The position numbers and the translations under genes were made by a program. 58,540 bases of DNA, from the NCBI GenBank assembly GCA_021838005.1, contig JAKCEK010000001.1, positions 1 to 58,540 of the forward strand. The letters run 5' to 3'. How positions within the stretch are numbered: position 1 is the stretch's first letter; each line of letters opens with the position of its first letter. The notes below the pieces were generated by a model. That model was not told the DNA's origin and made no database searches. It saw only the letters and a list, made by a program, of their open reading frames with translations. Source of the stretch: Actinomycetes bacterium. GTDB lineage: Bacteria; Actinomycetota; Acidimicrobiia; Acidimicrobiales; RAAP-2. This document shows, in pieces, positions 5,548 through 40,657 of this stretch.

Positions 5548-5549
5548 GC

Positions 5550-18777: not shown

Positions 18778-20256
18778 CTAGATCTTGACGGGACCCCGTT
18801 CGGACGCCGCGAGGTCGGAGAAGTCGGCACTGCCCCGCGGCGCCGAGGGCATCAGGGCGGCCGCGACGAGGCCGACGACGAGAATCACCACCGCCGTCCA
18901 GGGCGCCCAGATCGTCGGTGCGGTGACCTTGTAGATCGCCCCGAAGATCGCGGCGGCGGTCACCAGGAAACCCACCAGGCACGCGAGCGCCAGCTGCGAG
19001 GACTTACCGCTTTGCCGGAGCCCCCGCACCGCCCCCACCGCGATGAGCAGGTAGATGACCGCAATCGCGAAGCCCCCGAAGGTTGACATCCACGAGAACA
19101 TCGAGACGTACTCGGGCGTCTTGGGCAGCGCGAAGGCGCTCGAGTGCACCGCCAGCACGATCACGACCGCGTAGGCGAGCAGGACGAACACACTCGCCCC
19201 GAAGGGCGTGCCGTGGCGCGAGATCGACGTCAGGGGCCGGGGCATCTTGCCGTCACGCGCCAGGGCGAAGAAACCGCGCGACCCCGAGACCGCGCACCCG
19301 ATCAGCACCGCGATCATGTCGAAGACCACGACGAGCTCGACCAGTCGGCGGATGCCCACTCCGGCGAATCCCCCGGTGGCCTTCGGGCCGGCCAGGGTGA
19401 AGAGGGGCGCGCCGGCGTTCTTGCCGATCGCCGAAAGACTGAAGTGGAACCCCGCCACCTGGGCGAAGGACCCGATGACGTAGAACCCGGCGATCACCAG
19501 CACGGAGGTGAGCACGGCGCGCGGGATGTTGTGCTCGGGTCGCTCCGCCTCCTCGGCCAGGTTCGCCGAGGTCTCGAACCCCGTGAAGAGCAGGACCCCG
19601 TACAGGACCCCGAAGAGGATGCCCGTCCAGTGGGTGGGCGAGCCGCTCGGCGAGAAGCCCGAGGCGATGTGGTGCAGGCCCGAGCTCTTCACGATCACGT
19701 AGATCGAATAGACCAAGACGACGCTCACCGAGATCGCGGCCAGGGTCAGTTGGACGCGGGTCGACAAGGCGACCCCCAGGTAGATGATGGTCCCGACCAG
19801 CAGGAACAGAAGCACGTCCCACGCCCAGTACGGCAGGGGCGTCACGTTGAACTCACCCTGGATCGAGTCGTGGATGGTCCCGCCGATCATCGGCAGGATC
19901 CCCGCGCCCAGGGCCAGGATCCCCGCGTAGTAGAGCCACCCCGCCGCTGAACCGACGCGCCCGCCCAAGCCGTCGGTCACGTAGTCGTAGAGCGACCCGG
20001 CCGCCTGAATCTTTCGGGTGTACTCCGCGATGATCCAGCCCAGGCCCAGCACGCCGATGGCCGCGATGACCACGGCGAGGGGCGCCGCCGTGCCCGCTCC
20101 CTTGCCCGACGCGCTCACGATGCCCACAACCAGTGGCACCAAGAACGCGATCGAGAAGACGGGCCCCATCAGCCCAACCGACTGGGCCACCGTATCGATG
20201 AGGGTCAGGCGGCGCCGACCACCGAGCTCGGTTCGCTTCGTCGTGTCCGACGCCAT
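18778..20256 (-). CDS. APC family amino acid/amine permease
   Basis: About 12 hydrophobic segments, AGSLYDY, FTGFETSANLAEE, SRGFFALARDG. Confidence 0.9.
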   Translation of the reverse strand: MASDTTKRTELGGRRRLTLIDTVAQSVGLMGPVFSIAFLVPLVVGIVSASGKGAGTAAPLAVVIAAIGVLGLGWIIAEYTRKIQAAGSLYDYVTDGLGGRVGSAAGWLYYAGILALGAGILPMIGGTIHDSIQGEFNVTPLPYWAWDVLLFLLVGTIIYLGVALSTRVQLTLAAISVSVVLVYSIYVIVKSSGLHHIASGFSPSGSPTHWTGILFGVLYGVLLFTGFETSANLAEEAERPEHNIPRAVLTSVLVIAGFYVIGSFAQVAGFHFSLSAIGKNAGAPLFTLAGPKATGGFAGVGIRRLVELVVVFDMIAVLIGCAVSGSRGFFALARDGKMPRPLTSISRHGTPFGASVFVLLAYAVVIVLAVHSSAFALPKTPEYVSMFSWMSTFGGFAIAVIYLLIAVGAVRGLRQSGKSSQLALACLVGFLVTAAAIFGAIYKVTAPTIWAPWTAVVILVVGLVAAALMPSAPRGSADFSDLAASERGPVKI

Positions 20257-20303
20257 CGCTCCCCCTTGACGACGCGCCTCCCCCGGGCACGCACAATCGC
20301 ACG

Positions 20304-20332
20304 ACCGTAAGGGGTCAAACGAGCCCTGTCAA
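20304..20332 (-). promoter_or_regulatory. Sigma70-type promoter of the permease (TTGACA-N17-TACGGT) overlapped by an operator-like site at 20305-20322
   Basis: Minus strand reads TTGACA gggctcgtttgacccct TACGGT; plus strand CCGTAAG-GGGT-CAAACGA. Confidence 0.65.
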
Positions 20333-20337
20333 GGAAA

Positions 20338-21063
20338 CTACCTGAGACGACGCTGTGCCTCGCCCACGACCCAGCGGAACGCCGGGTCGGGAGCGTCGAG
20401 CAGCTCCGGGTGCCACTGGACCGCCAGGACCTCGCCGTCGGCGCTCTCGAGACCCTCGATAACCCCGTCGGGCGCCTTCGCGGAGACCACGAGCCCCTCC
20501 CCCACGCGCTCAACCACCTGGTGGTGGAGGGAGTTGACCTCGAGCGCGAGCGGGTAGAGGTCGGAGAGCCGCGTTCCTTCGACGACCGACACGTCGTGAG
20601 TCCGCAGTCGGCCGTCGCTGGAGAAGCGGGGATGGCCCGCGCCCTCGTCGAGCGGGACGTCCTGGACCAGCGTCCCGCCGCGGGCCACGTTCACGAGCTG
20701 GAGCCCCCGGCAGATCGCCAGGACCGGTAGGGCGCGTCGCTGGGCCGCCTCGAAGAGCGCGAGCTCCCAGGCGTCGCGATCGGGCTCCACGTCACCCAAG
20801 CCGGGCTCGGGGACGGCCCCGTAGCGCGCCGGTTCGACGTCCGCGCCACCCGAGAGCACGAGGCCGTCGAGTCGGGCGACGACCGCGTCGACGTCGGCGT
20901 CGCGCGACAACTCCACCGGCAGGCCGCCCGCCAGGGCGATCGAGCGCGTGTAGTCGGCGAAGTGAAGATCAAAGAACAGGCCGCGCATCGCCGGGGGCAC
21001 GTGATCGCCGAGGTAGGCGGCGGGCCAGCGGCGACCCGTGACGCCGATGAGCGGACGACTCAT
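20338..21063 (-). CDS. Gamma-glutamyl-gamma-aminobutyrate hydrolase family (PuuD-like, peptidase C26)
   Basis: MSRPLIGVT, LVLSGGADV, AICRGLQ, VNSLHHQ, AVQWHPE; it is the 3' end of the listed 1427-aa ORF. Confidence 0.9.
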   Translation of the reverse strand: MSRPLIGVTGRRWPAAYLGDHVPPAMRGLFFDLHFADYTRSIALAGGLPVELSRDADVDAVVARLDGLVLSGGADVEPARYGAVPEPGLGDVEPDRDAWELALFEAAQRRALPVLAICRGLQLVNVARGGTLVQDVPLDEGAGHPRFSSDGRLRTHDVSVVEGTRLSDLYPLALEVNSLHHQVVERVGEGLVVSAKAPDGVIEGLESADGEVLAVQWHPELLDAPDPAFRWVVGEAQRRLR

Positions 21064-21105: not shown

Positions 21106-21123
21106 TCGTTTGGTAGCAAACAT
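21106..21123. promoter_or_regulatory. Operator-like palindrome TCGTTTG-GTAG-CAAACAT between the divergent hydrolase and P450 genes
   Basis: Inverted repeat GTTTG-N4-CAAAC; related copies at 20305 and 36075. Confidence 0.6.
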
Positions 21124-21138: not shown

Positions 21139-22380
21139 ATGGCCGACGCGCTCGCCGACATCGTCTCGCACGACACGTACGTTGACGGCGTCCCTCACGC
21201 GACGTTCGCGCACCTGCGCACCCACGACCCGGTGCACTGGACCGAGGAGACCGGGGGCCGGGGCTTCTGGAGCCTGACCACGTACGACGACGTGTTGCTC
21301 GCCAGCCGCTCCACCGACGTCTACTCGAGCCGCTTCGGCATCCGCCTCGAGGACATGACCCCCGAAGAGACCGAGGCGCGCCGGACCCTCATGGAGATGG
21401 ACCCGCCCGAGCACACCCGTCTGCGACGACTCGTCAGCCGTCCCTTCGCCCCGAAGTCGGTGAACGCGTACGAGTCCGTCGTGCGCACTCTGGCCGGCGA
21501 GGTCCTCGACGCGCTCGACGGCGCGCTCGAGTTCGATTTCGTCTCGCGCGTTGCGCGCGAACTGCCCATGCGCATGCTCGGCCGACTCCTCGGCCTGCCC
21601 GACGAGGACCTCGACTGGCTCGTCCGGCGGGGCGACGCCCTCATCGGCAACTCCGACCCCGACTTCACCGACTACGTCGTCGACCGCGTCGACACCTCGG
21701 ACTACCGCTTCCTCCCCTTCCGTAGCCCCGTCTCCCTGGAGCTCTTCGCCTACGCCGAGACCGCCCTCGCCGAGCGTCGGCTCCACCCCAGCCACGACAT
21801 CCTGTCGGCCCTCCTCGAGCCCACCACCGACGGCGAGTCCCTCGACGAGCTCGCGCTCAAGAACTTCTTCACCCTGATGGTGGCGGCCGGCAACGACACC
21901 ACCCGCTACACCATGACCGGGGGCCTTCAGGTCCTCATCGACCGGCCCGAGCTCCTCGCGCGCATCCCGTCGATGACCCTCGAGGAGAGGAAGCTCCTCA
22001 CCGACGAGGTCCTGCGCTTTACGACCGTGACGATGCACTTCCGCCGCACCCTGACCCAGGACGTGACCCTGCGGGGCACGCCCATGAAGGTGGGCGACAA
22101 GGTCGTCCTGTGGTACGCGTCGGCCAACTTCGACGAGGGCCACTTCGACGCGCCCGAGGAGTTCCGCGCGGACCGCACGCCCAACGACCACGTCTCGTTC
22201 GGCCTGCACAGCCCCCACCTGTGCCTGGGCTCGCACCTCGCGCGCCTCGAGATCCGAGTCCTGCTCGAAGAGATCGCCCGTCGCTGGACGCGCGTCGAGA
22301 ACGCCGCCCCACCCGAGCGCCTCCGCTCGAACTTCATCAGCGGGGTGAAGCGGCTCCCGGTGCGCGTCGACTGGCGCTAA
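21139..22380 (+). CDS. Cytochrome P450
   Basis: MDPPEHTRLR, I-helix AAGNDTT, EVLR (ExxR), heme motif FGLHSPHLCLG. Confidence 0.95.
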   Translation: MADALADIVSHDTYVDGVPHATFAHLRTHDPVHWTEETGGRGFWSLTTYDDVLLASRSTDVYSSRFGIRLEDMTPEETEARRTLMEMDPPEHTRLRRLVSRPFAPKSVNAYESVVRTLAGEVLDALDGALEFDFVSRVARELPMRMLGRLLGLPDEDLDWLVRRGDALIGNSDPDFTDYVVDRVDTSDYRFLPFRSPVSLELFAYAETALAERRLHPSHDILSALLEPTTDGESLDELALKNFFTLMVAAGNDTTRYTMTGGLQVLIDRPELLARIPSMTLEERKLLTDEVLRFTTVTMHFRRTLTQDVTLRGTPMKVGDKVVLWYASANFDEGHFDAPEEFRADRTPNDHVSFGLHSPHLCLGSHLARLEIRVLLEEIARRWTRVENAAPPERLRSNFISGVKRLPVRVDWR

Positions 22381-22452
22381 GTCGATCGCCCGCCGCCGCT
22401 CGAGCCGGCGCGAGATACCATGAGCCATGGCCGTCGCCCCCACGCCGGTGCC

Positions 22453-24402
22453 GTGACGACGCCCCTCTGGACGCCCTCGCCCGAGCGCGCGGCTCGCTCG
22501 CACCTGGCGGCCCTGCTCGACGCCCACCACTTCGCCGACTACGACGCGGCGTGGGCCTGGTCGACCGATCCGGCGACGATGGGCGACTTCTGGGGAGCCG
22601 TCGCCGCCGACACCGGGGTCGTCTTCCACTCTCCCGCCGCGGTCCCGCTCGAGCGCGATCCCACGTCGGTGACCGGCGCGCGCTGGTTCCCCGGCGCGAC
22701 GCTCAACTACGCCGAACACGCCCTGCGCCGCCGGGGCCCGGCGACGGCCGTCATCTCCCACGACGACGCCCGCGGGGACCGCGCGGTGAGCTGGGACGAG
22801 CTCGCCCGGCTGGTCGGCGGGCTCCAGCGGGGCCTCGCGGCCCGAGGGGTCGGCCCGGGCGACGTCGTCGCGGCCTACCTGCCCAACGTGGTCGAGACCC
22901 TCGCCCTGATGCTCGCCACGACCGGTCTCGGAGCGACCTGGACGTGCTGCGCGCCCGAGACCGGCGTCGACGGCGTCCTCGACCGCCTCCAGCAGACCAG
23001 CCCACGAGTCTTCGTTGCCGTCGACGGCTACCGCTACGGCGAACGGACGCGCGACTCGCGGGAGGACGCCGCGACGGTGCGGGCCGAGCTCGCGAGCGTG
23101 CGCCACGCCGTGATGCTCGACCTGCTCGCCCTGGAGCGCCCCGCGGGCTTCGACGCCTGGGCCGACCTCGCCGGGGACCCGACGGAGCCGACCTTCGAAG
23201 CCGTGCCCTTCGACCACCCTCTGTACGTCCTCTACTCCTCGGGCACCACCGGCAAGCCCAAGGCCATCGTCCACGGCCACGGCGGGATCCTCCTCGAGCA
23301 CGCCAAGGCCCTGCGCTACCACTTCGACCTCGACGCCGACGACCGCTTCTTCTGGTACACGACGACGGGGTGGATGATGTGGAACTTCTGCGTCTCGGGC
23401 CTGGTCGTCGGCGCGACCGTGACGCTGTTCGACGGGAACCCCAGCGCGCCCGACGCCGACCGTCTCTGGTCGTTCATGGCCGAACACTCGATCACGGTCG
23501 CCGGCGTGGGTGCCGCGTACCTGGTCGCCTGCGCCAAGGCCGATCTCGTCCCCCGACTCGAGCACGACCTCGCCGCGCTCGAGACCCTCGGGGCGACGGG
23601 TTCGCCGCTGCCGGGATCGGCCGCTGCGTGGGTGTACCGCGACGTGAAAGACGACCTCCTCGTCGCCTCCTTTAGCGGCGGCACGGACGTGTGCACCGGC
23701 TTCGTGGGCGCCAGCCCCCTGCACCCCGTCTGGCCCGGCGAGATCTCGTGCCGATGCCTCGGGGTCGCCCTCGAGGTCTACGACGACCAAGGGGCGACCG
23801 TGCGCGACGTCGAGGGCGAACTCGTTGTCACCCAGCCGATGCCCTCGATGCCGGTCGGTTTCTTGAACGACCCCGGGGACGACCGCTACCGGGCCGCCTA
23901 CTACGGTCGCTACCCCGGGATCTGGGTCCACGGGGACCGCGCCACGCTGACCTCCCACGGCTCGGTCGTCATCACCGGTCGATCCGACGGGACCCTGAAC
24001 CGCGGCGGGGTGCGCATGGGCACCGCCGAGTTCTACAACGTCGTCGAAGCCCTCCCCGAAGTCACCGACAGCCTCGTCGTGCACCTGGAGGACCACGGGG
24101 GCGGGCCCGGCGAGCTCTGGCTCTTCGTGGTGGCCCCGGGCGCGGATCGCGAGACGCTCGTCGAGAGGATTCGCACCGAGGTACGCACGCGGCTGTCGCC
24201 GCGGCACGTGCCCGACCACGTGGTCGTCGTCGACGCCGTACCGCGCACACTCACCGGCAAGAAGCTCGAAGTTCCCGTCAAGCGCATCCTCGCCGGCGCC
24301 GACCCCGCCACCGTGGCGGCCGTCTCGTCGGTCGCGAACCCCGAGAGTCTCGACACCTTCGTCGCCCTGGCGGGGTCGCGCCGCCCCGCCCCCGACGCCT
24401 GA
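22453..24402 (+). CDS. Acetoacetate--CoA ligase (acetoacetyl-CoA synthetase)
   Basis: WFPGATLNYAEH, YSSGTTGKPKAIVH, TTTGWMMWN, SGGTDVC, GRSDGTLN, TGKKLEVPVK; start is GTG 22453 or ATG 22420. Confidence 0.9.
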   Translation: MTTPLWTPSPERAARSHLAALLDAHHFADYDAAWAWSTDPATMGDFWGAVAADTGVVFHSPAAVPLERDPTSVTGARWFPGATLNYAEHALRRRGPATAVISHDDARGDRAVSWDELARLVGGLQRGLAARGVGPGDVVAAYLPNVVETLALMLATTGLGATWTCCAPETGVDGVLDRLQQTSPRVFVAVDGYRYGERTRDSREDAATVRAELASVRHAVMLDLLALERPAGFDAWADLAGDPTEPTFEAVPFDHPLYVLYSSGTTGKPKAIVHGHGGILLEHAKALRYHFDLDADDRFFWYTTTGWMMWNFCVSGLVVGATVTLFDGNPSAPDADRLWSFMAEHSITVAGVGAAYLVACAKADLVPRLEHDLAALETLGATGSPLPGSAAAWVYRDVKDDLLVASFSGGTDVCTGFVGASPLHPVWPGEISCRCLGVALEVYDDQGATVRDVEGELVVTQPMPSMPVGFLNDPGDDRYRAAYYGRYPGIWVHGDRATLTSHGSVVITGRSDGTLNRGGVRMGTAEFYNVVEALPEVTDSLVVHLEDHGGGPGELWLFVVAPGADRETLVERIRTEVRTRLSPRHVPDHVVVVDAVPRTLTGKKLEVPVKRILAGADPATVAAVSSVANPESLDTFVALAGSRRPAPDA

Positions 24403-24612
24403 GCCACGGCGCGAGGCGTTCGGGCCTCGTGATCGTCGCGTTCCCCCGGGCGTGTCGAGGGGGCACCTTCGGTGCGACGACTGCGGCCCGAGGAGTGTCA
24501 CGACCACCGCCACCGACCTACCCCCACCGCAACGACACGGCCGCCCACACCAAGAACCCGACCCTCGCGCTCGTGGAGCCCCTCCTCCTCGTCGCGGGCC
24601 CCGCGAACTAGG

Positions 24613-24635
24613 GCCCACCATAACCCCTGGTGGGC
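24613..24635. terminator. GC-rich hairpin gcccacca-taacccc-tggtgggc
   Basis: Perfect 8-bp stem in intergenic DNA. Confidence 0.4.
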
Positions 24636-24756
24636 ACCGTCACCGTCCCCGCGAGGTGAGAGAGTCGCCGGCGCTGAGGTGACTTTGGTCCCTAGGACCA
24701 CGGGGGTCTCAACGGGTCAGCGTGGAGGCGTCGAAAGAGGACCGAGGAGGGTCACG

Positions 24757-25050
24757 ATGACGACGGTGGTCCACCACTCCCCCACCCACGCGGGTCCCGC
24801 ACACCGCGCGCGCCACAACGAGACCACCCGCGACCGCGTCGTCCGGATCGTGGTGGGCGCTGCGGCCGTGATCGCGGGCGCGGTCCTCCTCACTACCCGG
24901 GACGCGGTCCTCGCCTACCGGCTGGAGTCCCTCCTAGTCTTAGTCGGGCTGGTCCTCGCCGTGACGGGTGTCACCGGCTACTGCCCGCTCTACGCCCTCT
25001 GTGGCCACGTGCCCGAGTCCCTGCGGGCCGAGGACGGTCCGCGCCCCTAG
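24757..25050 (+). CDS. DUF2892 (YgaP-like) membrane protein
   Basis: HNETTRDRVVRIVVG...TGVTGYCPLYALCG; GAGGAGG RBS. Confidence 0.8.
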   Translation: MTTVVHHSPTHAGPAHRARHNETTRDRVVRIVVGAAAVIAGAVLLTTRDAVLAYRLESLLVLVGLVLAVTGVTGYCPLYALCGHVPESLRAEDGPRP

Positions 25051-26582
25051 GGCTGGGACACCGCCGCCGCGAGGTCGCGCAGGCGGACCTTGTCGACCTT
25101 GCCCACGGGATTGCGGGGAAGTTCGGCTACGACCACCAAGCGCGTGGGCACCTTGTAGCCCGCGAGGCGAACCCGGCAGTGGGCCTCGAGGGCGTCGAGG
25201 TCGACGGGGCTCGCCGGATCGACCTCCAGGTACGCGACCCCGGTCTCGCCCCAACGGGAGTGGTCGACCCCTACGACCGCGGCGCACAGCACGCCGGGGA
25301 ACGAGGTCAGGACGTTCTCGACCTCGACCGGATAGACGTTCTCACCCCCCGAGACGAACATCTCCTTGAGCCGCCCAGCGATGGAGTAGAACCCGTCGCG
25401 GTCGCGGTGGGCGATGTCCCCAGTGCGTAGCCACCCGTCGACCAAGACGGCGGACGTCGCCGCCTCGTCCCGCCAGTAGCCCGGGAAGACGCCCGGACCC
25501 CGCACGTGGAGCTCACCTTCCCCCGATCCCTCGACGCACGCGCCGGTCAGGGGGTCGACGAGCGCGACGTCCACGAACGGGTACGGGTGGCCGACCGTGC
25601 AGGGGTGCGCGGGCGCGTCGCGCGCGTCGAGGCAGAACACGTTGGGGCCGGCCTCGGTGAGGCCGTACCCCTGGTGCAGGGCCACGCCCCGCTCACTCCA
25701 GCGCGCCGCGACGGTCGCCGGCATGGCCGCCCCGCCGACGACCACGTGGCGCAGACTCGACAGGTCGGCCGTGGCGAAGCGGGGGTGCTCCCCCACCATC
25801 AAGAAGGTCGTGGGAACCCCGGCCATCGTGGTCACGCGCTCGCGCTCGATCAGATCGAGCACGCGCCCCGCGTCGAACGACGTCTCCAACAGCACCGTGG
25901 CGCCCTTCAGCCAGGCCTGCATCGGTTGCACGTTCCAGCCCCCGATGTGGAATTGGGGCAGGACCTGTAAGACCACGTCGGTGTCGAGGATCGGGGCGAC
26001 GAAGTCGAGGCTCAGATTGGTCCAGAAGAAGTTCGCGTGGGTGAGCAGCACCCCCTTTGGCCTTCCCGTCGTGCCCGAGGTGGCGATCACGACCAGTCCC
26101 GCGTCCTGCTCGACGGCGGGCAGCCCCCACCCCTCACCCTCGACGGCAAGTTCGCTCAGCAGCCACTCGAGGCGTTCGGGTCGGCCCCCGAGGTCGGTGA
26201 GCGACCCGTCGACGCGCGCGCGCTGACTTTCCGAACCGACCCACAGCCGGGGCGTCATCAGATCGAGTTGGGGCGCGAGTTCGGCGTTGGTCAGCCGCCA
26301 GTTCATCGGGAAGAGAATCGCCCCAGCCTTCGCGCACGCGAAGAGCAGGACCACGACCTCGGGGCGGTTCTCGCTGAGGACCGCCACCCGCTCCCCCGGA
26401 CCCACGCCGCGGGCGACGAGGCCGCGGGCGACCGCGCTCGACAGCTCGTCGAGTTCGCGGTAGGTGTAGCGCTGCTCCGCCCCCACCAGGGCCACGCTGT
26501 CGGGCGCCAGTCGAGCGCGCTCCCTCACCCAACGGCCCACCACGGTCGGCTCGAGTGACTCGCGCGCGTCGAGGCGACTCAT
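25047..26582 (-). CDS. AMP-dependent acyl-CoA synthetase (MenE/FadD-like)
   Basis: TSGTTGRPKG, GYGLTE, WLRTGD, SGGENVYP, GKVDK. Confidence 0.9.
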   Translation of the reverse strand: MSRLDARESLEPTVVGRWVRERARLAPDSVALVGAEQRYTYRELDELSSAVARGLVARGVGPGERVAVLSENRPEVVVLLFACAKAGAILFPMNWRLTNAELAPQLDLMTPRLWVGSESQRARVDGSLTDLGGRPERLEWLLSELAVEGEGWGLPAVEQDAGLVVIATSGTTGRPKGVLLTHANFFWTNLSLDFVAPILDTDVVLQVLPQFHIGGWNVQPMQAWLKGATVLLETSFDAGRVLDLIERERVTTMAGVPTTFLMVGEHPRFATADLSSLRHVVVGGAAMPATVAARWSERGVALHQGYGLTEAGPNVFCLDARDAPAHPCTVGHPYPFVDVALVDPLTGACVEGSGEGELHVRGPGVFPGYWRDEAATSAVLVDGWLRTGDIAHRDRDGFYSIAGRLKEMFVSGGENVYPVEVENVLTSFPGVLCAAVVGVDHSRWGETGVAYLEVDPASPVDLDALEAHCRVRLAGYKVPTRLVVVAELPRNPVGKVDKVRLRDLAAAVSQP

Positions 26583-27256: not shown

Positions 27257-27294
27257 CACTCCTCCTCCCGCCGACGTCGTCCGGCGACGCGACG

Positions 27295-30674: not shown

Positions 30675-31369
30675 CCGTCGCGGTCGAGCTCGACGACGTC
30701 CACGTCAGCCTCGCGGGCTCCCACGTGCTCCAGGGCGTCACCTTCACCGTGCCCACCGGCGGGGTCACCGCGCTCCTCGGGCGCAACGGCGTGGGCAAGA
30801 CCACGACGCTGCGGGCGATCATGGGTCTCGTCACGCATACCGGCACCGTGCGGGTCCTCGGCCACGACACTCGAGGGCTCGCGGTGCACCGAGTCGCCCG
30901 CCTCGGGGTCGGCTACGTGCCCGAGGACCGTGACGTCTAGCCCGGGCTCAGCGTCGGCGAGAACCTCCGACTGGCCGAGCGCGTCGAGGCACCGGCCTAC
31001 GACGACGCGTTCGCCCTCTTCCCCGACCTGGCGACAAGGGTCCGCCAGCGAGCGGGCTCGCTCTCGGGGGGCCAGCAGCAGATGCTCGCGATCGCCCGAG
31101 TCCTGCTGAATCGGTGGCCCCTGCTCGTGGTGGACGAGCCCTCCAAAGGGCTCGCCCCCAAGTTGGTCGGCGAGGTCACCGACGCCCTGGCCCGGGTCGC
31201 CACGACCTCGACCATCCTGCTCGTAGAGCAGAACCTCGCGGTGGTGCGTCGCTTGGCCGAGCGCGTGGTCGTGCTCGACCACGGCCGGGTCGTCCACGAG
31301 GGGTCCGTCGGCGACCTCGACGACGTCGACCTCGCCCGCCAGCTGCTCGGGGTCACGGCGGGACGATGA
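30671..31369 (+). pseudogene. HAAT ABC ATP-binding protein (LivF-like) interrupted by an in-frame TAG at 30938-30940
   Basis: GRNGVGKTT...YVPEDRDV*PGLSVGENL...LSGGQQQMLAIAR...VDEPSKGLAP...VEQN, all in one frame. Confidence 0.85.
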
Positions 31370-33398: not shown

Positions 33399-34180
33399 CC
33401 CTCGTGGGACGACACGCCCTCGTCACCGGATCGACGAGCGGGATCGGCTGGGGCGTCGCGCGCGCCCTGGCGCGCGCCGGGGCCGACGTGATGCTCAACG
33501 GCTTCGGCGACCCCGACGACGTGGACCAGCGCCGCCGCGCGCTCGCCGCGGAGTTCGGCGTCGCGGTCGACTACGACCCGGCCGACCTCACGAGCGCCCA
33601 GGGCGTCGCGGGCCTCGTCGAGCGCACCCAGGCGGCCCTCGGCTCGCTCGACGTGCTCGTGAACAACGCCGGCATCCAGCACGTCGCCCCCCTCGAGGAG
33701 TTCCCCGTGGAGCGCTGGGACGCGGTGATCGCACTGAACCTCTCGGCCGTGTTCCACGGGATGCGCTGCGCGATTCCCCAGATGCGCGAGCGCGGATGGG
33801 GCCGCATCGTCAACATCGCCTCGGCCCACGGACTGGTGGCGAGCACCCAGAAGGTCGCCTACGTCGCGGCCAAGCACGGCGTGGTCGGCGCCACCAAGGT
33901 CGCGGCCCTCGAGCTCGCCAACACCGGGGTCACCGTGAACGCCGTCTGCCCCGGCTGGGTCCTCACCCCGCTCGTCGAGCGTCAGATCGCCGCGCGCGCC
34001 GCGGCCAACGGAACCACGGTGGCCGAGGAGTCGCTCGCCTTGCTCGCCGAGAAGCAGCCGATGCTCACCTTTACCACTCCCGAGCAGATAGGCGACCTCG
34101 TGGTCTTCCTCTGCTCTGACGCGGCCTCGACCATGACCGGCGCGCCCCTGTCGATCGACGGGGGCTGGACCTCGCAGTGA
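33395..34180 (+). CDS. bdhA: D-3-hydroxybutyrate dehydrogenase
   Basis: TGSTSGIG, NNAGIQHVAP, ASAHGLVAS, YVAAKHG, CPGWVLTPLV, EKQP. Confidence 0.9.
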   Translation: MTLVGRHALVTGSTSGIGWGVARALARAGADVMLNGFGDPDDVDQRRRALAAEFGVAVDYDPADLTSAQGVAGLVERTQAALGSLDVLVNNAGIQHVAPLEEFPVERWDAVIALNLSAVFHGMRCAIPQMRERGWGRIVNIASAHGLVASTQKVAYVAAKHGVVGATKVAALELANTGVTVNAVCPGWVLTPLVERQIAARAAANGTTVAEESLALLAEKQPMLTFTTPEQIGDLVVFLCSDAASTMTGAPLSIDGGWTSQ

Positions 34181-34207
34181 CCCGCGGGCCCCTCCGGGTG
34201 CGCCCGC

Positions 34208-34711
34208 TCACCCTCGACGCCAGAGGTCGTAGCCGTCGGCCGCGCCGGCCCTGGCGAAACCGAGACGAGCGAGCACCCGGGCCGACGCCTCGTTCTCGGG
34301 GCGGGCGCGCGCCGTGAGCCCGTGCACGCCCTCGTGCGCCTCGGCCCAGGCGCAGAGCCGGCCCGCGGCCTCGGTGGCGTAGCCCCGTCCCCGCCAGTCC
34401 GGCGCGAGCGCGTAGCCGATCTCGAGCCGCCCGGCGGAGTCGGGCGGACCGTGGAATCCGACGTCGCCGATGAGGGTGCGCTCCACCTGTTCGATCACGA
34501 CCCACACGCCGAAACGCGGGTCAGTCTCACCACCGGTGAATCCCTCCACGAAGCGCTGGCGCACGACGGGCGCGGGCCACTCGGGCGCACTCGCGAGCCC
34601 GAGGCTCACGGCGAAGGCCACCGGGTCGCGACCGAGGGCGGCCGCCTCGGTGGGTGAGAGGTTCCGCAGCCGGACCCGCGCGGCCGAGAGCTCGGTCGGG
34701 TCCTCGCCCAC
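34208..34711 (-). CDS. GNAT family (RimJ/RimL-like) N-acetyltransferase
   Basis: IGDVGFHGPP, EIGY, RGRGYATEA, NEASARVLARLGF. Confidence 0.88.
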   Translation of the reverse strand: MGEDPTELSAARVRLRNLSPTEAAALGRDPVAFAVSLGLASAPEWPAPVVRQRFVEGFTGGETDPRFGVWVVIEQVERTLIGDVGFHGPPDSAGRLEIGYALAPDWRGRGYATEAAGRLCAWAEAHEGVHGLTARARPENEASARVLARLGFARAGAADGYDLWRRG

Positions 34712-34717: not shown

Positions 34718-36007
34718 CTAGAGGAAGGGGAGGTACTCGCGCATCTCCCAGTCGGTCGTCGCGGCACAGTAGCGCTCCCACTCCGAGCGCTTCACCGCGA
34801 GGTGCTGGGCGACGAGCTCGGTGCCCACGGCCTCGACGAGGTCGGCGTCGGCCTCGAGCTCGCCCAGCGCCTCGGCGAGTGAGTGGGGCACCCCGATCGT
34901 CGCCTCGATGGTGTCAAGACCGTTGCCCGCCTCGGGTGGCCCGGGGTCGGCTCCGTGCAGGACGCCCAGGCGCGCCGCCTGCAAGACAGCGGCGATGGCG
35001 GTGTGCACGACGGCGGCCCCGTCGCTGAGGCGGTGCTCGAGGCGGGTACCCTCGCCCCTCGCCCCGGGCACCCGGATCGTCGCGCCCCGGTGGTCGTAGC
35101 CCCAGTTGGCCCAGTAACCCGAGAGCGACGCCGGTCGCAGCCGCTTGTAGGCGTTGACCGTCGGGGCGCACAGGCCGGCGAGGGCGCGGTGGTGGGCGAT
35201 CAGCCCGCCGATGGCGTGGCGGGCGGCCGCCGAGAGCCCGTCGGCGCTCGACGCGTCGGCGAAGGCGTTGAGGCCCGCGTCGTCGCGCAGCGAGAAGTTG
35301 ACGTGCAGTCCCGAGCCGCCCCGGTCCGAGAGGGGCTTGCCCATGAAGGTGAGCAGCAGTCCGAGGCGGTGGGCGACCTCGCGCGCGAGGACCTTGAACA
35401 AGAAGGCGTCGTCGGCGGCCCGCAGGGCGTCGCTGTAGCGCAGGGTGAACTCGAACTGGGGAGAGTCGTACTCGGAGTTGACCGACTCGAGGGGCAGCCC
35501 CGCCTCGCGGCAGGCGCTCCAGATGGCGTCGACGAGCCCGTCCGGGTCGACGGCGGGACCGGTGCCGTAGACGAAGGCACCGGGTGTGTCGCGGGGCCGC
35601 CAGCCGCCCTGGCCGTCGGGGGCGAAGACGAACGCCTCGAACTCGATCCCGACGTAGGGTGCGAGGCCCAGCGCGCGCCAGTCCTCGACCGCCTTGGCGA
35701 GGGAGGTGCGGGGCGACACGGCGAGCGGCGCGCCGTCGCGGGTGAGCTGGGCCACCACCACGCGGGTGCGCGGCTCCCACGACGGGCGCAGGTCGGCGGC
35801 CTCGAAGACGGCCTCGAAGTCGGGGAGTCCCTCGTTCCATCCGCTGCCCGGCGTATAGGGGGTCATCGTGCGGTCGTAGGAGAGGGCCCACGTTCCCGTG
35901 CAGTGACGAGCCCCGTCCCCGGCCATCTCGGCGGGGATGTACTTGCCCCGCGCGAGGCCGAGGTGATCGGGCCACAGGACCCGCACGCGATCGAAGTCTT
36001 CGGCCAT
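34718..36007 (-). CDS. Glutamine synthetase-like gamma-glutamyl-amine ligase (PuuA/GlnA2-4 type)
   Basis: DHLGLARGK, GIEFE, EYDSPQFE, FMGKP, GSGLHVNFS, NAYKRL, WGYDHR, RLEHR; divergent from true GSI. Confidence 0.85.
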   Translation of the reverse strand: MAEDFDRVRVLWPDHLGLARGKYIPAEMAGDGARHCTGTWALSYDRTMTPYTPGSGWNEGLPDFEAVFEAADLRPSWEPRTRVVVAQLTRDGAPLAVSPRTSLAKAVEDWRALGLAPYVGIEFEAFVFAPDGQGGWRPRDTPGAFVYGTGPAVDPDGLVDAIWSACREAGLPLESVNSEYDSPQFEFTLRYSDALRAADDAFLFKVLAREVAHRLGLLLTFMGKPLSDRGGSGLHVNFSLRDDAGLNAFADASSADGLSAAARHAIGGLIAHHRALAGLCAPTVNAYKRLRPASLSGYWANWGYDHRGATIRVPGARGEGTRLEHRLSDGAAVVHTAIAAVLQAARLGVLHGADPGPPEAGNGLDTIEATIGVPHSLAEALGELEADADLVEAVGTELVAQHLAVKRSEWERYCAATTDWEMREYLPFL

Positions 36008-36074: not shown

Positions 36075-36092
36075 TCATTCGTACGCAAACGA
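36075..36092. promoter_or_regulatory. Operator-like palindrome TCATTCG-TACG-CAAACGA between the divergent GS-like and FAH genes
   Basis: Two mismatches to TCGTTTG-N4-CAAACGA; 13 nt before the FAH start codon. Confidence 0.6.
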
Positions 36093-36105: not shown

Positions 36106-36999
36106 GTGGAGTTCCGACGCATCCTGCTGGAGGGCAACGAGGTCGAGGTGATCCGCGAGGGCGCGACCCTCGTGGCGGCCGACGGACGCCGCGTCGAGGC
36201 GGAGAGCGCCGTCCACCTGCCCCCGGTGAGGCCGACGAAGATCCTGTGCTGCCACCTCAACCACGTCTCGCGCGTGCGCGAGTTCGGGGTCGGCCTGCCG
36301 CCGGCGCCCACCTGGTTCCAGAAGCCCGTGTCGGCGCTCAACGCCCACGGGGGTGCCGTCGTACGCCCCGCGAACTGCCGCTACCTCAACTACGAGGGCG
36401 AGGTCGCGATCGTGATCGGGCGCACCGCGCGCAACATCGCCCTCGCCGACGCCGCCGAGTACATCCACGGCTACACCGTCGCCAACGACTTCGGCCTGCA
36501 CGATTTCCGCGATACCGACGCCGGCTCGATGCTGCGGGTCAAGGGCGCCGACACGCTCTGCCCCATCGGACCCGGGCTCGTCACCGACTGGTCGTTCACG
36601 GGCAAGGCCCTACGCACGAGTGTCAACGGCGAGGTCCGACAGGACGGCTCGACCGACGAGATGGCCTGGGACATGCACTACCTGGTGACCGACCTGGCTC
36701 GGCTGATCACCCTGGTACCCGGCGACGTCATCCTGACCGGCACGCCGGCGTTCTCGCGACCCGTCGAGCCCGGCGACGTCGTCACCGTCGAGGTCGAGGG
36801 CCTCGGGGCCCTCACCAACCACGTCGTCGCCGGACCGGCCCCGGTCAGCGACGAGGTCGGCGCCCAGCCCACGGCCACCGAGGAGGTGCTCTCCACCGCG
36901 CTCGGCGGCGACTGGCCCTTGCGCGGAGAGCGTCGTCCCGTCGCGACGGACCGCTCCCAGCTCCCCCACCCTCGCGTGCGACCCCGGTACGAGGCGTGA
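36106..36999 (+). CDS. Fumarylacetoacetate hydrolase family protein (HpaG-like isomerase/decarboxylase)
   Basis: FQKP, YEGEVAIVIG, GYTVAND, KGADTLCPIGP, PGDVILTGTP; GGAGGA RBS. Confidence 0.88.
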   Translation: MEFRRILLEGNEVEVIREGATLVAADGRRVEAESAVHLPPVRPTKILCCHLNHVSRVREFGVGLPPAPTWFQKPVSALNAHGGAVVRPANCRYLNYEGEVAIVIGRTARNIALADAAEYIHGYTVANDFGLHDFRDTDAGSMLRVKGADTLCPIGPGLVTDWSFTGKALRTSVNGEVRQDGSTDEMAWDMHYLVTDLARLITLVPGDVILTGTPAFSRPVEPGDVVTVEVEGLGALTNHVVAGPAPVSDEVGAQPTATEEVLSTALGGDWPLRGERRPVATDRSQLPHPRVRPRYEA

Positions 37000-38459
37000 G
37001 CGCCCGGGTCGACGTCGCGGGCGTCTCGGTCGCCACGGGCCACTTCATCGCCAACGAGCGCGTCGACTCGGCCACGACCTTCGTCGACCGCAGCCCTCTC
37101 GACTGGTCGCTCACCCTGGCCGAGGTGTCGCGCGGCTCGGCCGCGGACGCCGCCGCCGCCGTGGCCGCGGCGTCCGACGCCTTCCCCGCCTGGGCCGCGC
37201 TCGCCCCGGCCGAGCGCGGCGCCTACCTGCACCGCCTGGCTGACCTCATCGACGCGAACGTCGAGCCCCTCGCCCGGGTCGAGTGCCTCGACATGGCCAT
37301 GCTCGAAGAGAGCCTGCGCCGGCGGGTCATTGGGCGCGGCGCGCGCAACTTCCGCGCCTACGCCGACCTGGCCGCGATCTACGAGGGTCGGACCTGGACC
37401 AGCCACGGCACCGAGAACCACGTCCAGCGCATGCCCGCGGGACCCACCGTGGTGATCACCCCCTGGAACGCCCCCTTCATGCTCTCGACCTGGAAGTGCG
37501 CGCCGGCGCTCGCGGCCGGCGATACCGTCGTGCTGAAGCCGGCGGAGTGGTCGCCCCTGTCGTGCTCGCTCTTGATGGACCTCGTCGCCGAGGCGGGCCT
37601 GCCGTCCGGGGTCTTCAACCTGGTTCAGGGGGTCGGTGAGGAGGTCGGCGCCGCCCTCGTCGCCGACCCGCGGGTCCGGAGGATCTCCTTCACCGGCTCG
37701 CCCGAGACGGGTCGGGCCATCGGCCTCGCCGCGGCCGCCAACCTCGTGCCCTTCACGGGTGAGCTCGGGGGCAAGGGTCCCTTTGTCGTCTTCGCCGACG
37801 CCGACCTCGACCTCGCGCTCGAGCGGGCCTCGGCGATGTACGACGACGCCGGTCAGGTCTGTCTCGCCGGTACACGGCTGATCGTCGAGGCGCCGGTCTA
37901 CGACGAGTTCCGCGACCGGCTCGTCGAGCGGGCCCGCGCCCACGTGCTCGGCGACAGCCGCGACCCGGCCACTACGGTCTCACCCCTCATCCACCCCGAC
38001 CACCTGACGCGCGTCGAGGGCTTCGTCGAGCGCGCCCGCGCCGCGGGCCACCGGGTCCTCACCGGGGGGAGGCGTTGGCGTCAGGACGGTCTGTGGTACG
38101 AGCCGACGGTCGTCGAGCCCCTCGACAACGACGCCGAGATCGTCCAACGCGAGGTCTTCGGCCCGGTGCTCACCCTGCAGCGCTTCTCGGGCGAGGACGA
38201 GGCGGTCGCCCTGGCCAACTCGACGCCCTACGGCCTCTCGGCCATGGTCTTCACCCGGGACCGGGCCCGCGCCGACCGCGTCGGGGCGCGCGTGCGCGCC
38301 GGGACGATCTGGGTCAACTGCTTCTTGGTCCGCGACCTCACCGCGCCCTTCGGGGGGACGGGCATCTCGGGCATCGGGCGTGAGGGCGGCGACTACGCCC
38401 TCGACTTCTACAGCGACCTCAAGACCTATCAGGTGAAGGAGGGGACCACCCATGGGTGA
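36996..38459 (+). CDS. Aldehyde dehydrogenase, HpaE-like hydroxymuconic semialdehyde dehydrogenase
   Basis: ITPWNAPFMLSTWK, KPAEWSP, FTGS, ELGGK, GQVCLAG, EVFGP, GIGREGG. Confidence 0.88.
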   Translation: MSARVDVAGVSVATGHFIANERVDSATTFVDRSPLDWSLTLAEVSRGSAADAAAAVAAASDAFPAWAALAPAERGAYLHRLADLIDANVEPLARVECLDMAMLEESLRRRVIGRGARNFRAYADLAAIYEGRTWTSHGTENHVQRMPAGPTVVITPWNAPFMLSTWKCAPALAAGDTVVLKPAEWSPLSCSLLMDLVAEAGLPSGVFNLVQGVGEEVGAALVADPRVRRISFTGSPETGRAIGLAAAANLVPFTGELGGKGPFVVFADADLDLALERASAMYDDAGQVCLAGTRLIVEAPVYDEFRDRLVERARAHVLGDSRDPATTVSPLIHPDHLTRVEGFVERARAAGHRVLTGGRRWRQDGLWYEPTVVEPLDNDAEIVQREVFGPVLTLQRFSGEDEAVALANSTPYGLSAMVFTRDRARADRVGARVRAGTIWVNCFLVRDLTAPFGGTGISGIGREGGDYALDFYSDLKTYQVKEGTTHG

Positions 38460-39333
38460 GATCGTCGGGGCGGGGTTCTTGGCCCACGTGCCCACCATCG
38501 TCCTGCCCGACGAGGAGCGTCGGGCCCTCAACCACGGCCGCGAGAGCACTCTCTACACGGGCCTGCGCCAGCTGCGCCGTGAGGTCTTCGACGTGCTGCG
38601 ACCCGACCTCGTCGTCGTCTTCGACAGCCACTGGTTCACCACCGTCGAGTTCGTCGTCACCGCGGCCGAGCGGCGCCACGGCCTTTTCACCTCCGAGGAG
38701 CTACCCCGCGGGATGTCGAGCGTGCCCTACGACGTGAAGGGCGACCCGGCCTTCGCCAAGCTCGTCGGCGAGATCGCCCTCGCGACCCCCGAGTGCTGGA
38801 TCACCCCGATCGACAACGAGCACCTCCCCATCACCTACGCCACGACGAACTTCCTCGGCTTCCTCCAGGGCGACGAGGCCTGGATCTCGGTGAGCGTCTG
38901 CCAGACGGCCGAGCCCGAGGACTTCGCGACCGTGGGACGCGTCCTCGCCGACGCCGTCGCCCACAGCGACCGGCGGGTCGTGCTCATCGCCTCGGGGGCG
39001 CTGAGCCACACCTTCCACCCGCTTCGCCAACTGCGCGACCACGAGGCGGCCGACGAAGAACACATCTTCTCGGCGACCGCGCGCGAGTGGGACCACCGCA
39101 TCCTCGAGGCGTGGCGGCGCGGCGACCACGCCTTCGTCGTCGACCACTTTGGCGAGTTCGCGGCCGTCAAGCCCGAGGGGCGCTTCGGCCACTACCAGAT
39201 GATGGTCGCGGCCCTCGGCGGGCGCGACTGCGTGGCGCCGGGCCGGCTCTACTCGGACTACGAGAACGCCATCGGCACGGGCCAGGTCCACGTCTGGTTC
39301 GACCGGCCCGCGACCGGTTGGAGCCGCTCGTGA
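38452..39333 (+). CDS. Extradiol ring-cleavage dioxygenase, LigB/HpaD (homoprotocatechuate 2,3-dioxygenase)-like
   Basis: HVPTI, VVFDSHW, ASGALSHTF, GTGQVHVWF, similar to E. coli HpaD motifs. Confidence 0.85.
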   Translation: MGEIVGAGFLAHVPTIVLPDEERRALNHGRESTLYTGLRQLRREVFDVLRPDLVVVFDSHWFTTVEFVVTAAERRHGLFTSEELPRGMSSVPYDVKGDPAFAKLVGEIALATPECWITPIDNEHLPITYATTNFLGFLQGDEAWISVSVCQTAEPEDFATVGRVLADAVAHSDRRVVLIASGALSHTFHPLRQLRDHEAADEEHIFSATAREWDHRILEAWRRGDHAFVVDHFGEFAAVKPEGRFGHYQMMVAALGGRDCVAPGRLYSDYENAIGTGQVHVWFDRPATGWSRS

Positions 39334-40127
39334 ACCTCGTCGGCCTGCCCTTCCCGCGCACCGCGACGGGCCGGGCCTCGCTGTTGCCCCCACCCCCGTG
39401 GCACTACTCGGGCGACCTGCTCACCGTCGAGTACCGCACCGACCCCGCCGCGATCGCCCGCCTCCTGCCCGAGGGGGTCTCGCTCCCCCGCGACGACGAG
39501 GACCCCGGTGCGGTCGCCTTCATCTGGGCCGACTGGCAGAGCTGCGGCGACGACGGGGCCGAGCTGCTCGACCCGGTGCGCAGCCAGTACCGGGAGGCCT
39601 TCGTCGTGGTGCGCTGTCGCTACCGGGGACAGCTCTACAGCCGGTGCCTCTTCATCTGGGTCGACGCCGACTTCGCCCTCGTGCGCGGCTACATCCAGGG
39701 CTACCCCAAGAAGCTCGGCTCGATCCACCAGACCCGGCCGGTCAGCGTCGGGCGAGCCGGGCCGCGGGTCGGCCCCGGCGGGCGCTTCGGGATGACCCTC
39801 GCCGCGGCCGACCGCCGCCTCGCCGAGGGCACGGTGACCCTGGAGGAGGCCGCGCCCAGCGCCGGCTTCGTGAACGGACACCCCATGCTCCACCATCGCG
39901 TCTTCCCGCGTATCGAACTCGACGGCTCCGACGCCCTCGACGAGGTCGTCACCATGGCCGGGGTCGACGTCGAGCTCGGGCCGGCCTGGCGGGGCACGGC
40001 GACCCTCGAGCTCTTCGAGTCGCCTACCGAGGAGCTCACCTCGATCGCCCCGCGCGAGTTCATCGCCGGCTACTACCGGGCCGTGGGCACCACGTTCGCG
40101 GGGGGGACGACCCTCGAGGTCCGATGA
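39330..40127 (+). CDS. Acetoacetate decarboxylase-like superfamily protein (MppR/family V-like)
   Basis: PPPWHYSGD, FIWVD, Schiff-base motif RGYIQGYPKKLG. Confidence 0.82.
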   Translation: MNLVGLPFPRTATGRASLLPPPPWHYSGDLLTVEYRTDPAAIARLLPEGVSLPRDDEDPGAVAFIWADWQSCGDDGAELLDPVRSQYREAFVVVRCRYRGQLYSRCLFIWVDADFALVRGYIQGYPKKLGSIHQTRPVSVGRAGPRVGPGGRFGMTLAAADRRLAEGTVTLEEAAPSAGFVNGHPMLHHRVFPRIELDGSDALDEVVTMAGVDVELGPAWRGTATLELFESPTEELTSIAPREFIAGYYRAVGTTFAGGTTLEVR

Positions 40128-40657
40128 GCCGACGGATCTCGAGCAGCGAATCGGCCGTCGTCTCGCGGGCCGAGCGCGACATCCGCTCCCGCCTCGAGGG
40201 CTACGAGCTGGACTTCCGCTCGATGAGCGCCGTGTCGAACATCTACCGAGCCGGCTCGGCCGTGCGCAACCACATGGAGCGCACCGTGCTCTCCGACCAC
40301 GACCTGAGCTGGGTGGCCTTCACGGTCCTGTGGGTCCTGTGGATCTGGGGCGACCAGGAGACCGGCCACGTCGCCGCCGAGGCCGGGGTCACCAAGGGCA
40401 CCCTCACCGGGGTCATCAAGACGCTCCAGGGACGACGGCTCATCCGACGCCTCCCCCACCGCGACGACCGGCGCCGGGTCTCGATCGGGCTCACGCGGGC
40501 CGGGACCCGTCTCATCGAGTCCGTCTTCCCCGAGTTCAACCGCCACGAGACCCTCGCCGTCAACGGCCTGACGCGCGCCGAGCAGGACGAGCTCGCCCGC
40601 CTCCTGCGCAAGGTGCTCGCCACGATGAGCGCCGACGACTCGTCGGGCGACGACTAG
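40124..40657 (+). CDS. MarR family transcriptional regulator
   Basis: DLSWVAFTVLWVL, GVTKGTLTGVIKTL, DDRRRVSIGLTRAG. Confidence 0.9.
   Translation: MSRRISSSESAVVSRAERDIRSRLEGYELDFRSMSAVSNIYRAGSAVRNHMERTVLSDHDLSWVAFTVLWVLWIWGDQETGHVAAEAGVTKGTLTGVIKTLQGRRLIRRLPHRDDRRRVSIGLTRAGTRLIESVFPEFNRHETLAVNGLTRAEQDELARLLRKVLATMSADDSSGDD

Follow-up and report, generated by a model that had tools for sequence, protein, structure and literature searches.

A widespread, co-regulated bacterial gene cluster that may open the ring of tyramine or dopamine while the nitrogen is capped with glutamate

What would a bacterium degrade with a gamma-glutamyl ligase and hydrolase, a cytochrome P450 (P450), and a set of ring-cleavage enzymes, all apparently under one operator? 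The question is raised by a 58,540-nucleotide stretch of an Acidimicrobiales genome (assembly GCA_021838005.1, contig JAKCEK010000001.1), referred to here as the window. Our reading of its gene content leans modestly toward the answer that this co-regulated set degrades tyramine or dopamine by way of a glutamate cap, the ring being opened while the amine is still capped. Whether it represents a widespread, undescribed route, in which the gamma-glutamyl group would be kept through P450 ring hydroxylation and extradiol fission to give pyruvate and gamma-aminobutyrate (GABA), is to us an evenly balanced question. Capped ring cleavage had been proposed in an earlier note on this DNA; the idea has gained from co-inheritance, ligase motifs, and accessory genes, while the P450 reaction is not pinned down.

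Profile scans place each of the nine cluster genes (Table 1) where the earlier note had put it and in the same family, with reading frames and catalytic motifs intact in all nine. The FAH, aldehyde dehydrogenase (ALDH), dioxygenase, ADC-like, and MarR genes form a single overlapping run (36106-40657, plus strand). Every gene scores under the cut-off of its named E. coli-type family, so that "-like" labels are apt: NCBIfam bit scores against cut-offs are 97/266 for PuuD, 491/638 for HpaE, 123/316 for HpaD, 200/276 for the C-terminal HpaG family, 238/380 for MppR, and 48/121 for HpaR, and the ligase scores 213/650 against the PuuA family. The window thus holds neither the PuuA-PuuD pair of a Puu orthologue nor the HpaD-HpaE pair over cut-off of an hpa operon. 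Among the 63 window open reading frames (ORFs) scanned there is no amine oxidase, HpaBC, or Rieske family member, as the note had said, and no PuuB-type oxidase, polyamine aminotransferase, ferredoxin, or reductase; a dedicated PuuC-type dehydrogenase is likewise missing, again in line with the note, though relatives have a PuuC-like gene. Family scans of the window found no HpaF, HpaH, or HpaI. Elsewhere, the window's genome encodes GabT and an aminobutyraldehyde dehydrogenase (both over cut-off), a true GlnII, and a class III aminotransferase (PRK06541); copper amine oxidase and HpaB were not found in this genome, which is 95% complete. The amine-oxidase family has seven matches elsewhere in the genome; the three of these that were scanned best resembled desaturases or protoporphyrinogen oxidase. 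At ~92% identity, the named relatives come from metagenome bins assigned to Acidimicrobiales or Actinomycetes.

In the window, 12,338 bases separate the P450 and ligase genes, whereas in 23 of 28 near loci the stop codons of these two genes overlap. Fifteen dioxygenase-bearing stretches come from the window's own genus: ten carry one block in the order PuuD-P450-ligase-FAH-ALDH-dioxygenase-ADC-MarR, in another P450 and ligase meet at a contig edge, three do not extend far enough, and one (G001) has the same insert as the window. Because the halves abut in relatives, the 12 kb between them is read as an insert, which is common to G001 and shorter in locus L032. It encodes an acetoacetate-CoA ligase and a 3-hydroxybutyrate dehydrogenase (both over the NCBIfam cut-off), an acyl-CoA ligase, a TetR regulator, a serine hydrolase, a Liv-type ABC transporter, and a GNAT acetyltransferase, and by this content looks like ketone-body and acyl-CoA metabolism. 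Abutment, a conserved operator, and co-occurrence across phyla in shuffled gene orders together argue that the halves are one co-regulated, co-inherited unit; the note's contention that they belong together is borne out by the near loci and by the presence of the operator in both.

A palindrome, TCGTTTG-N4-CAAACGA, occupies all three promoter gaps of the cluster and is kept in relatives, in agreement with the single motif that had been said to link the two halves. The pattern was found by reading the three intergenic gaps and was derived from those same sites; in the window it has three matches with 2-3 mismatches, all intergenic (20305, 21106, 36075), and a generic repeat search returned codon-driven noise only. 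Three matches were also reached in 5 of 100 shuffles, a figure that is post hoc because the pattern was built from these sites, and conservation is therefore the real test. Allowing ≤3 mismatches in the upstream regions of near loci, the operator precedes FAH in 38/40, the ligase in 39/40, P450 in 27/32, and the permease in 13/25, as against 0/43, 0/45, and 0/43 upstream regions of the internal ALDH, dioxygenase, and ADC genes, 2/293 upstream regions of unrelated genes, and 0/130 coding windows. In distant loci, its position shifts with the start of each transcription unit. A matrix built from 58 related sites ranks the window's sites 1st, 2nd, and 5th genome-wide (site 2 being the best) and finds intergenic sites in 24 of the 25 Actinomycetes loci described below. 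The likely binder is the MarR product. Among other matches in the same genome, an operator-like site (G000:C103:868-885, locus L215) precedes a group II pyridoxal phosphate (PLP) decarboxylase gene, from which a short gene diverges that, by its motif, presumably resembles prephenate dehydratase. Sites of this type score >14 in 7 of 11 cluster-bearing genomes of the genus versus 2 of 9 others, two being too short to score; a tie between this decarboxylase and the cluster is suggestive only. The genome's third-best match (G000:C188:6981-6998, L271) lies upstream of a 359-aa minus-strand gene that has no family assignment.

The cluster recurs in Actinomycetota, Alphaproteobacteria, and Gammaproteobacteria from soil, lakes, and the sea, with carriers among Acidimicrobiia, Nocardioides, Nanopelagicales, Dongia, Rhodospirillaceae, and Arenicellales and in many gene orders; named carriers include Streptomyces canus NBC_00633, S. 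lunaelactis MM109, and Novosphingobium sp. EMRT-2. Loci were collected around 80 dioxygenase genes, the best of 408 relatives among GTDB genomes, and around 80 ligase genes, the best of 565 relatives in metagenomes. Altogether 165 loci were compared, 103 with ring-cleavage genes and 25 of a sister form with an aminotransferase; being related and often short (L243 nearly duplicates L112), they are not independent, and their counts are descriptions, not tests. Under stricter identity limits, the partners in the 80 dioxygenase-anchored loci are ALDH (70), FAH (64), ADC (62), ligase (60), P450 (57), MarR (56), and PuuD (42); a permease is in 33. Within the window's genus, 14 of the 24 genomes have strong orthologues of ligase and dioxygenase, always the two together, and P450 is in 13 of those carriers plus G018. 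To avoid bias toward near kin, 401 genomes were drawn at random from the class of the Nocardioides bin (Actinomycetes); the dioxygenase is present in 26 of them, the ligase in 26, and the two together in 25. The 25 new Actinomycetes loci contain ALDH (25), FAH (25), core P450 (22), ligase (21), ADC (20), PuuD (18), a second amidotransferase (17; both in 15), and permease (17), three loci starting at a contig edge. In the class of the Dongia bin, the core P450 was found in 8 of 401 Alphaproteobacteria. Many relatives of the cluster carry a ferredoxin and a reductase.

Several loci depart from this pattern in ways that bear on single genes. An integrase-bearing insertion element splits the ligase gene in L108 and L218. 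Clusters L234, L235, L249, and L252 each have two paralogous core-type P450 genes, perhaps pointing to oxidation in two successive steps. In 5 of the 25 Actinomycetes loci and in three others, the gene after the reductase or decarboxylase encodes a protein of 420-515 aa that matches nothing in Pfam or NCBIfam (L081:13428-14702, L244:14195-15709); a thiamine pyrophosphate enzyme often comes next.

The enzymes themselves are consistent with amine capping and ring cleavage. By motif and alignment mapping, the ligase has retained the residues for metal, ATP, and glutamate of the glutamine synthetase fold (E122, E124, E179, E186, H235, R307, R312, E324, R326), lacks the FDGSS motif, and has a flap that reads SLSGYW with Trp299; neither D50 (of FDGSS) nor the E327 flap of true glutamine synthetase is present. 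Amine ligases are described as marked by the absence of both D50 and E327, a pattern given for PA5508, where W296 is found, and for GlnA4 (PMC6529630). The window ligase accordingly shares with the gamma-glutamylamide ligases (GoaS: PuuA, IpuC, AtdA1, PA5508, GmaS) a glutamine synthetase fold that has lost the ammonia residues, and its best solved relative is glutamate-methylamine ligase. Given the missing FDGSS motif, the flap tryptophan, and a separate GlnII in the genome, it likely takes an amine and not ammonia. A quick ligase tree resolves two deep types, each tied to the same dioxygenase, and places the enzyme of Ruegeria sp. TM1040 inside a proteobacterial ring-cleavage clade (99 support). 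In the dioxygenase, H12, H60, E242, and H186 are invariant in 40 homologs and correspond to the LigB-type ligands given as H12/H61/E242/H195 (PMC11926856). Its model (predicted local distance difference test score 94.5) is nearest in fold to the DHPAO structure 8IQ8 (template modeling score 0.86), and it is 27-32% identical to the six HpaD proteins compared. The best solved relatives of the ADC-like enzyme are 4JM3 (MppR, 208 bits) and 4ZBO (Sbi00515, 187 bits); it is predicted to be a hydratase-aldolase replacing HpaH and HpaI. The nearest solved structures to the core P450 are of CYP125/124 type, and 3,822 of 7,995 scored protein clusters match it at 1e-100. A core P450 acting as a GcoA/VanA-type O-demethylase was considered and judged less likely on these relationships, the GcoA-like enzyme being an optional second P450 of relatives. 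Of the two reactions that the note had allowed for this enzyme, ring hydroxylation or O-demethylation, the latter is thus less likely, since relatives add separate GcoA-like and VanA-like demethylases.

Taken together, these families allow the following scheme. The permease would import the amine and the ligase would form its gamma-glutamylamide; the P450 would likely add a second ring hydroxyl, a step that dopamine would skip; and the dioxygenase would cleave the capped catechol in the manner of HpaD. Next, the dehydrogenase, FAH, and ADC-like enzymes would yield pyruvate and gamma-glutamyl-4-aminobutyraldehyde, which a PuuC-like or household dehydrogenase would oxidize to gamma-glutamyl-GABA (gamma-Glu-GABA). 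From this the PuuD-like hydrolase would release glutamate and GABA, and GabT with succinic semialdehyde dehydrogenase would finish GABA. The carbon count holds: the hpa steps, in their published order (PMC12718150), give pyruvate and gamma-glutamyl-4-aminobutyraldehyde when run on gamma-glutamyl-dopamine. Ring-opened DOPA (3,4-dihydroxyphenylalanine) is reported to cyclize spontaneously (PMC11926856), and by analogy the cap would prevent self-cyclization of a ring-opened catecholamine. It may also keep the free amine off the P450 heme.

Accessory genes in relatives point to an arylethylamine such as tyramine or dopamine as the input and GABA as the output. A homolog (754 bits) of 7XIN, which we take to be the Pseudomonas DOPA decarboxylase, lies inside the operon between ADC and P450 in L105, L225, and L227, and upstream of P450 in five more, short loci. 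The P. putida decarboxylase is described as highly specific for L-DOPA (PMC9048412). Other loci contain four further PLP decarboxylase lineages, most pairs of which are ~30% identical, recruited separately; the recruitment of several lineages suggests that the substrate is an amine derived from an amino acid. At the other end of the pathway, a PuuC-like dehydrogenase gene is directly beside PuuD in L112, L113, and L115 (S. canus, S. lunaelactis, Embleya) and likewise in 6 of the 25 Actinomycetes loci; L238 and L245 have gabT over cut-off next to the cluster, and L245 also has a gene resembling aminobutyraldehyde dehydrogenase. In L113, P450, ferredoxin, and reductase are absent from the locus, the ligase, PuuD, and dioxygenase are kept, and a decarboxylase is gained, as would be expected if dopamine skips the P450 step.

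Other flanking genes hint at where such amines may originate. A sulfatase-family gene, mostly accompanied by a tripartite tricarboxylate transporter (TTT) gene, is found in marine loci L086, L090, L092, L093, L098, L100, L102, L104, L109, L134, L183, and L224, with the TTT pairing in nine marine loci, suggesting sulfated amines as a source. Locus L111 of Novosphingobium sp. EMRT-2 has no PuuD and is flanked by CocE/NonD hydrolase, TonB receptor, and feruloyl-esterase-family genes, which would fit tyramine release from plant hydroxycinnamic amides.

The sister form bears on when the nitrogen is lost. It comprises ligase, P450, ferredoxin, a PRK07481 aminotransferase, a PuuC-like dehydrogenase, a PRK02399-family protein, and a HAD hydrolase (L114, L127-L156, L160, L163-L165, L194, L196, L224, L228, L229), and its amidotransferase differs from PuuD. 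Among the 80 ligase-anchored loci, P450 is beside the ligase in 69, ring-cleavage genes occur in 19, and the aminotransferase in 24, with none having both of the latter; across all 165 loci, the 103 with ring-cleavage genes and the 25 with the aminotransferase do not overlap. The PuuD family is present in 48 of the 103 ring-cleavage loci versus 0 of the 25 aminotransferase loci. The sister form adjoins canonical hpa genes in L163/L164 (duplicates of a single sequence, with HpaD and HpaE over cut-off) and L228, and paa genes in L114 (Ruegeria sp. TM1040); in L163 the hpa neighbors lack hpaBC. Five Alphaproteobacteria were searched whole: three have the cluster dioxygenase and no TIGR02295 HpaD, and two the reverse. 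From the distribution of the aminotransferase, the ligase-P450 module appears to feed arylacetate pathways when the aminotransferase is present and its own ring-cleavage set when it is absent. That the nitrogen is kept through cleavage is thus argued by the mutual exclusion of ring genes and aminotransferase, the confinement of PuuD to the ring-cleavage form, the PuuC-like gene beside PuuD, the gabT adjacency, and the P450-less L113; an arylethylamine is argued by the DOPA decarboxylase homolog in the operon and the hpa or paa genes beside the sister form.

One alternative, which we regard as unlikely, is that the cap assists deamination: the P450 would hydroxylate the carbon next to the amide nitrogen to give glutamine and an arylacetaldehyde, the dioxygenase would work on ordinary homoprotocatechuate, and the PuuD-like enzyme would be a safety valve like AtdA2/NpaA2. 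A single reaction would then account for the paa genes of L114, hpaBC in L228 and L229, and hpa genes without hpaBC in L163, as well as for a DOPA decarboxylase gene directly upstream of P450; phenylacetaldehyde dehydrogenase is also a good match for the PuuC-like genes (486 against 568 bits), and NpaA2 is described as dispensable and likely to reverse the ligase (PMC11335346). Against this, the sister form's own aminotransferase would be redundant, L113 has no P450 in the locus yet retains ligase, PuuD, and dioxygenase, and the dioxygenase is a separate, ligase-tied subfamily, needless for a plain homoprotocatechuate enzyme. Moreover, hpaB is in none of the 25 Actinomycetes loci and was not found in the window's genome, which would leave ready-made catechols alone usable, and 15 of the 25 loci carry two different amidohydrolases.

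The same strategy might instead serve another amine, such as a benzylamine (vanillylamine to beta-alanine), an O-methylated or beta-hydroxylated amine, or an indoleamine, though this seems to us quite improbable. O-demethylase-like add-ons (a VanA-like Rieske gene, a GcoA-like second P450, or a third P450) occur in 13 of the 25 Actinomycetes loci, accompanied in several loci by PurU, FolD, or GcvT-like genes; an F420-type LLM oxidoreductase occurs in 15 of the 25, a methylmalonate-semialdehyde dehydrogenase gene abuts L255, and the Pseudomonas DOPA decarboxylase is reported to be weakly active on 5-hydroxytryptophan (PMC9048412). However, the DOPA decarboxylase homolog, gabT, and the hpa/paa neighbors indicate a two-carbon side chain, and the demethylase add-ons, optional and absent from the window, are read as funnels into the core.

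More doubtful still is an order like that of the Ipu pathway for isopropylamine (PMC6776027): the amine would be capped, hydroxylated, and uncapped, dopamine would then lose its nitrogen to an aminotransferase or oxidase encoded elsewhere, and the ring-cleavage enzymes would take homoprotocatechuate (or free dopamine). This order is likely in the sister form, where aminotransferase, dehydrogenase, and amidotransferase stand together, and the class III aminotransferase (PRK06541) of the window's genome could be enlisted for it. Yet a PRK07481-type aminotransferase is in 0 of the 103 ring-cleavage loci, despite their recruitment of transporters, redox partners, and decarboxylases, and the hydrolase here is of the PuuD family, absent from the sister form. 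Chance neighborhood of an ordinary hpa-like operon, unrelated polyamine genes, and a lipid P450, which the 12-kb separation in the window and the run-on of P450 into the acetoacetate-CoA ligase gene might suggest, is scarcely credible, as relatives have the two halves side by side, both halves carry the same conserved operator, and they are inherited together across phyla in a variety of gene orders.

Several observations weigh against ring cleavage of the capped amine as set out above. The P450 step is its least certain part. In L228 and L229, hpaB (over cut-off) and hpaC are immediate neighbors of the sister form; a P450 that hydroxylates the ring would be partly redundant with them, so that the P450 need not be a ring hydroxylase. 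Its CYP125/124-type relatives are known as methyl hydroxylases and not as phenol hydroxylases, and the DOPA decarboxylase gene just upstream of it also fits C-N cleavage by the P450. The gabT adjacency is seen in just 2 of the 25 loci, and L113 is the sole P450-less locus with full context, from a search of the plasmid alone. Uncapping is also incompletely covered, in that PuuD or the second amidotransferase is present in 36 of 58 ring-cleavage loci of at least 16 kb and missing in 22, including Dongia-type and Arenicellales loci; in five carrier genomes without a locus copy, a search for the second amidotransferase gave distant matches alone, in two. PuuD orthologs also occur in genus members that lack the cluster, the dioxygenase locus L238 has no ligase (it is on another contig), and the window has no HpaF-type isomerase, ferredoxin, or reductase.

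Table 1. Cluster genes, operator sites, and insert in the window
Feature	Position	Strand	Basis
APC-family permease, predicted amine importer	18778..20256	-	Pfam AA_permease; operator upstream
PuuD-like gamma-glutamyl hydrolase (Peptidase C26), predicted	20338..21063	-	Triad C118-H218-E220
Cytochrome P450, CYP124/125-like clade	21139..22380	+	Heme Cys362; D253-T254 pair
Glutamine-synthetase-like gamma-glutamylamide ligase (predicted)	34718..36007	-	Active-site residues
FAH-family enzyme, predicted HpaG-like decarboxylase/tautomerase	36106..36999	+	Family profiles; in 25/25 Actinomycetes loci
HpaE-like semialdehyde dehydrogenase (predicted)	36996..38459	+	N158, E256, C289; best NCBIfam match HpaE, under cut-off
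LigB-type extradiol dioxygenase, own subfamily	38452..39333	+	H12, H60, E242, H186; ~30% identity to HpaD
MppR/Sbi00515-like ADC-superfamily enzyme, predicted hydratase-aldolase	39330..40127	+	Lys127 in GYPKK motif
MarR regulator, likely palindrome binder	40124..40657	+	Family profile; in 56/80 dioxygenase loci
Operator site 1, upstream of permease	20305..20322		3 mismatches; kept in 13/25 relatives
Operator site 2, between divergent PuuD-like and P450 genes	21106..21123		27/32 relatives
Operator site 3, between divergent ligase and FAH genes	36075..36092		38-39/40 relatives
Lineage-specific insert, outside pathway	22420..34711		12,338-base P450-ligase gap; common to G001

Within the insert, the livF-like ABC ATPase gene (30668-31369) aligns in a single frame across 231 aa with the corresponding G001 gene and has an in-frame stop at 30938-30940. 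The GNAT acetyltransferase gene (34208-34711) is directly behind the ligase gene on the same strand; other GNAT genes are in or near L084, L115, L234, and L235. Farther out, positions 644-11831 hold a Pup-proteasome and tat locus of the ordinary kind, after which comes a ThyX-family gene containing two Thy1 stretches, and two coding-like ORFs (12831-14204, minus strand; 56458-57096, plus strand) have no Pfam match.

Compared with described systems, the cluster appears to have an Ipu-like front, an hpa-like middle, and a Puu-like end, and as a whole to belong to none of them. The closest precedent is Ipu of Pseudomonas sp. KIE171 and Arthrobacter aurescens TC1, whose permease, ligase, P450, and amidotransferase-like hydrolase have counterparts that likewise stand together in the window (PMC6776027). 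The Ipu set also has a ferredoxin and a reductase, which the window lacks and many cluster relatives have; in the available description it acts on a three-carbon alkylamine, its P450 working on the capped form, uncaps straight after hydroxylation, and has no ring-cleavage genes, and the presence of such genes here disfavors an alkylamine such as isopropylamine. Neither Ipu nor the sister form had been named in the comparisons of the earlier note, which are to that extent incomplete. Distant ligase-amidotransferase-P450 triads with other neighbors occur in L221 (Sagittula stellata E-37) and L223 (Novosphingobium sp. KACC 22771), and the Ipu-like module would by this distribution be a wider family.

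With Puu/Pau the cluster shares a glutamine-synthetase-like ligase, a PuuD-family hydrolase, in relatives a PuuC-like dehydrogenase, and the predicted intermediates gamma-Glu-GABA and GABA; it lacks a PuuB-type oxidase, and its four-carbon aldehyde would come from an aromatic ring. With hpa/hpc it shares the LigB-type DHPAO fold, HpaE-like and HpaG-like enzymes, and a MarR repressor, but it lacks HpaBC, HpaF, HpaH, and HpaI, has an MppR-like stand-in, and its ligase-tied dioxygenase is ~30% identical to HpaD. In Pseudomonas putida U, tyramine and dopamine reportedly enter the homoprotocatechuate pathway after deamination, and to our knowledge all known bacterial routes for these amines remove the nitrogen first. 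MppR and Sbi00515 are, respectively, a biosynthetic enzyme and an enzyme with aldolase-dehydratase activity and no known pathway; the cluster provides a catabolic setting for their subfamily. In the Atd/Tdn/Npa systems (AtdA1-5, TdnQ/T, NpaA1-5), a glutamine-synthetase-like ligase and an amidotransferase-like protein also start aromatic amine breakdown, but as described there the ring nitrogen is removed by a Rieske dioxygenase before cleavage (PMC11335346), and no ring-hydroxylating Rieske gene is present in the window. A literature search, covering few subscription journals and no supplements, found no published description of the cluster, which appears to be a real, widespread, and apparently unstudied pathway variant.

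Public records label genes of the cluster "glutamine synthetase," "catechol 1,2-dioxygenase," and "3,4-dihydroxyphenylacetate 2,3-dioxygenase," so functional profiles would misread it. Named strains carry both forms (for the sister form, Ruegeria sp. TM1040), which makes direct testing possible. If the proposed route is correct, many bacteria keep the amine nitrogen capped through ring fission and so avoid catecholamine self-cyclization; the cluster's dioxygenases would then form a new subfamily acting on N-capped catecholamines, its P450s a bacterial family producing dopamine from tyramine in capped form, and catabolism would be the native role of MppR/Sbi00515-like enzymes. Hydroxylation of a capped aryl amine by a P450 would, in addition, be of interest to biocatalysis.

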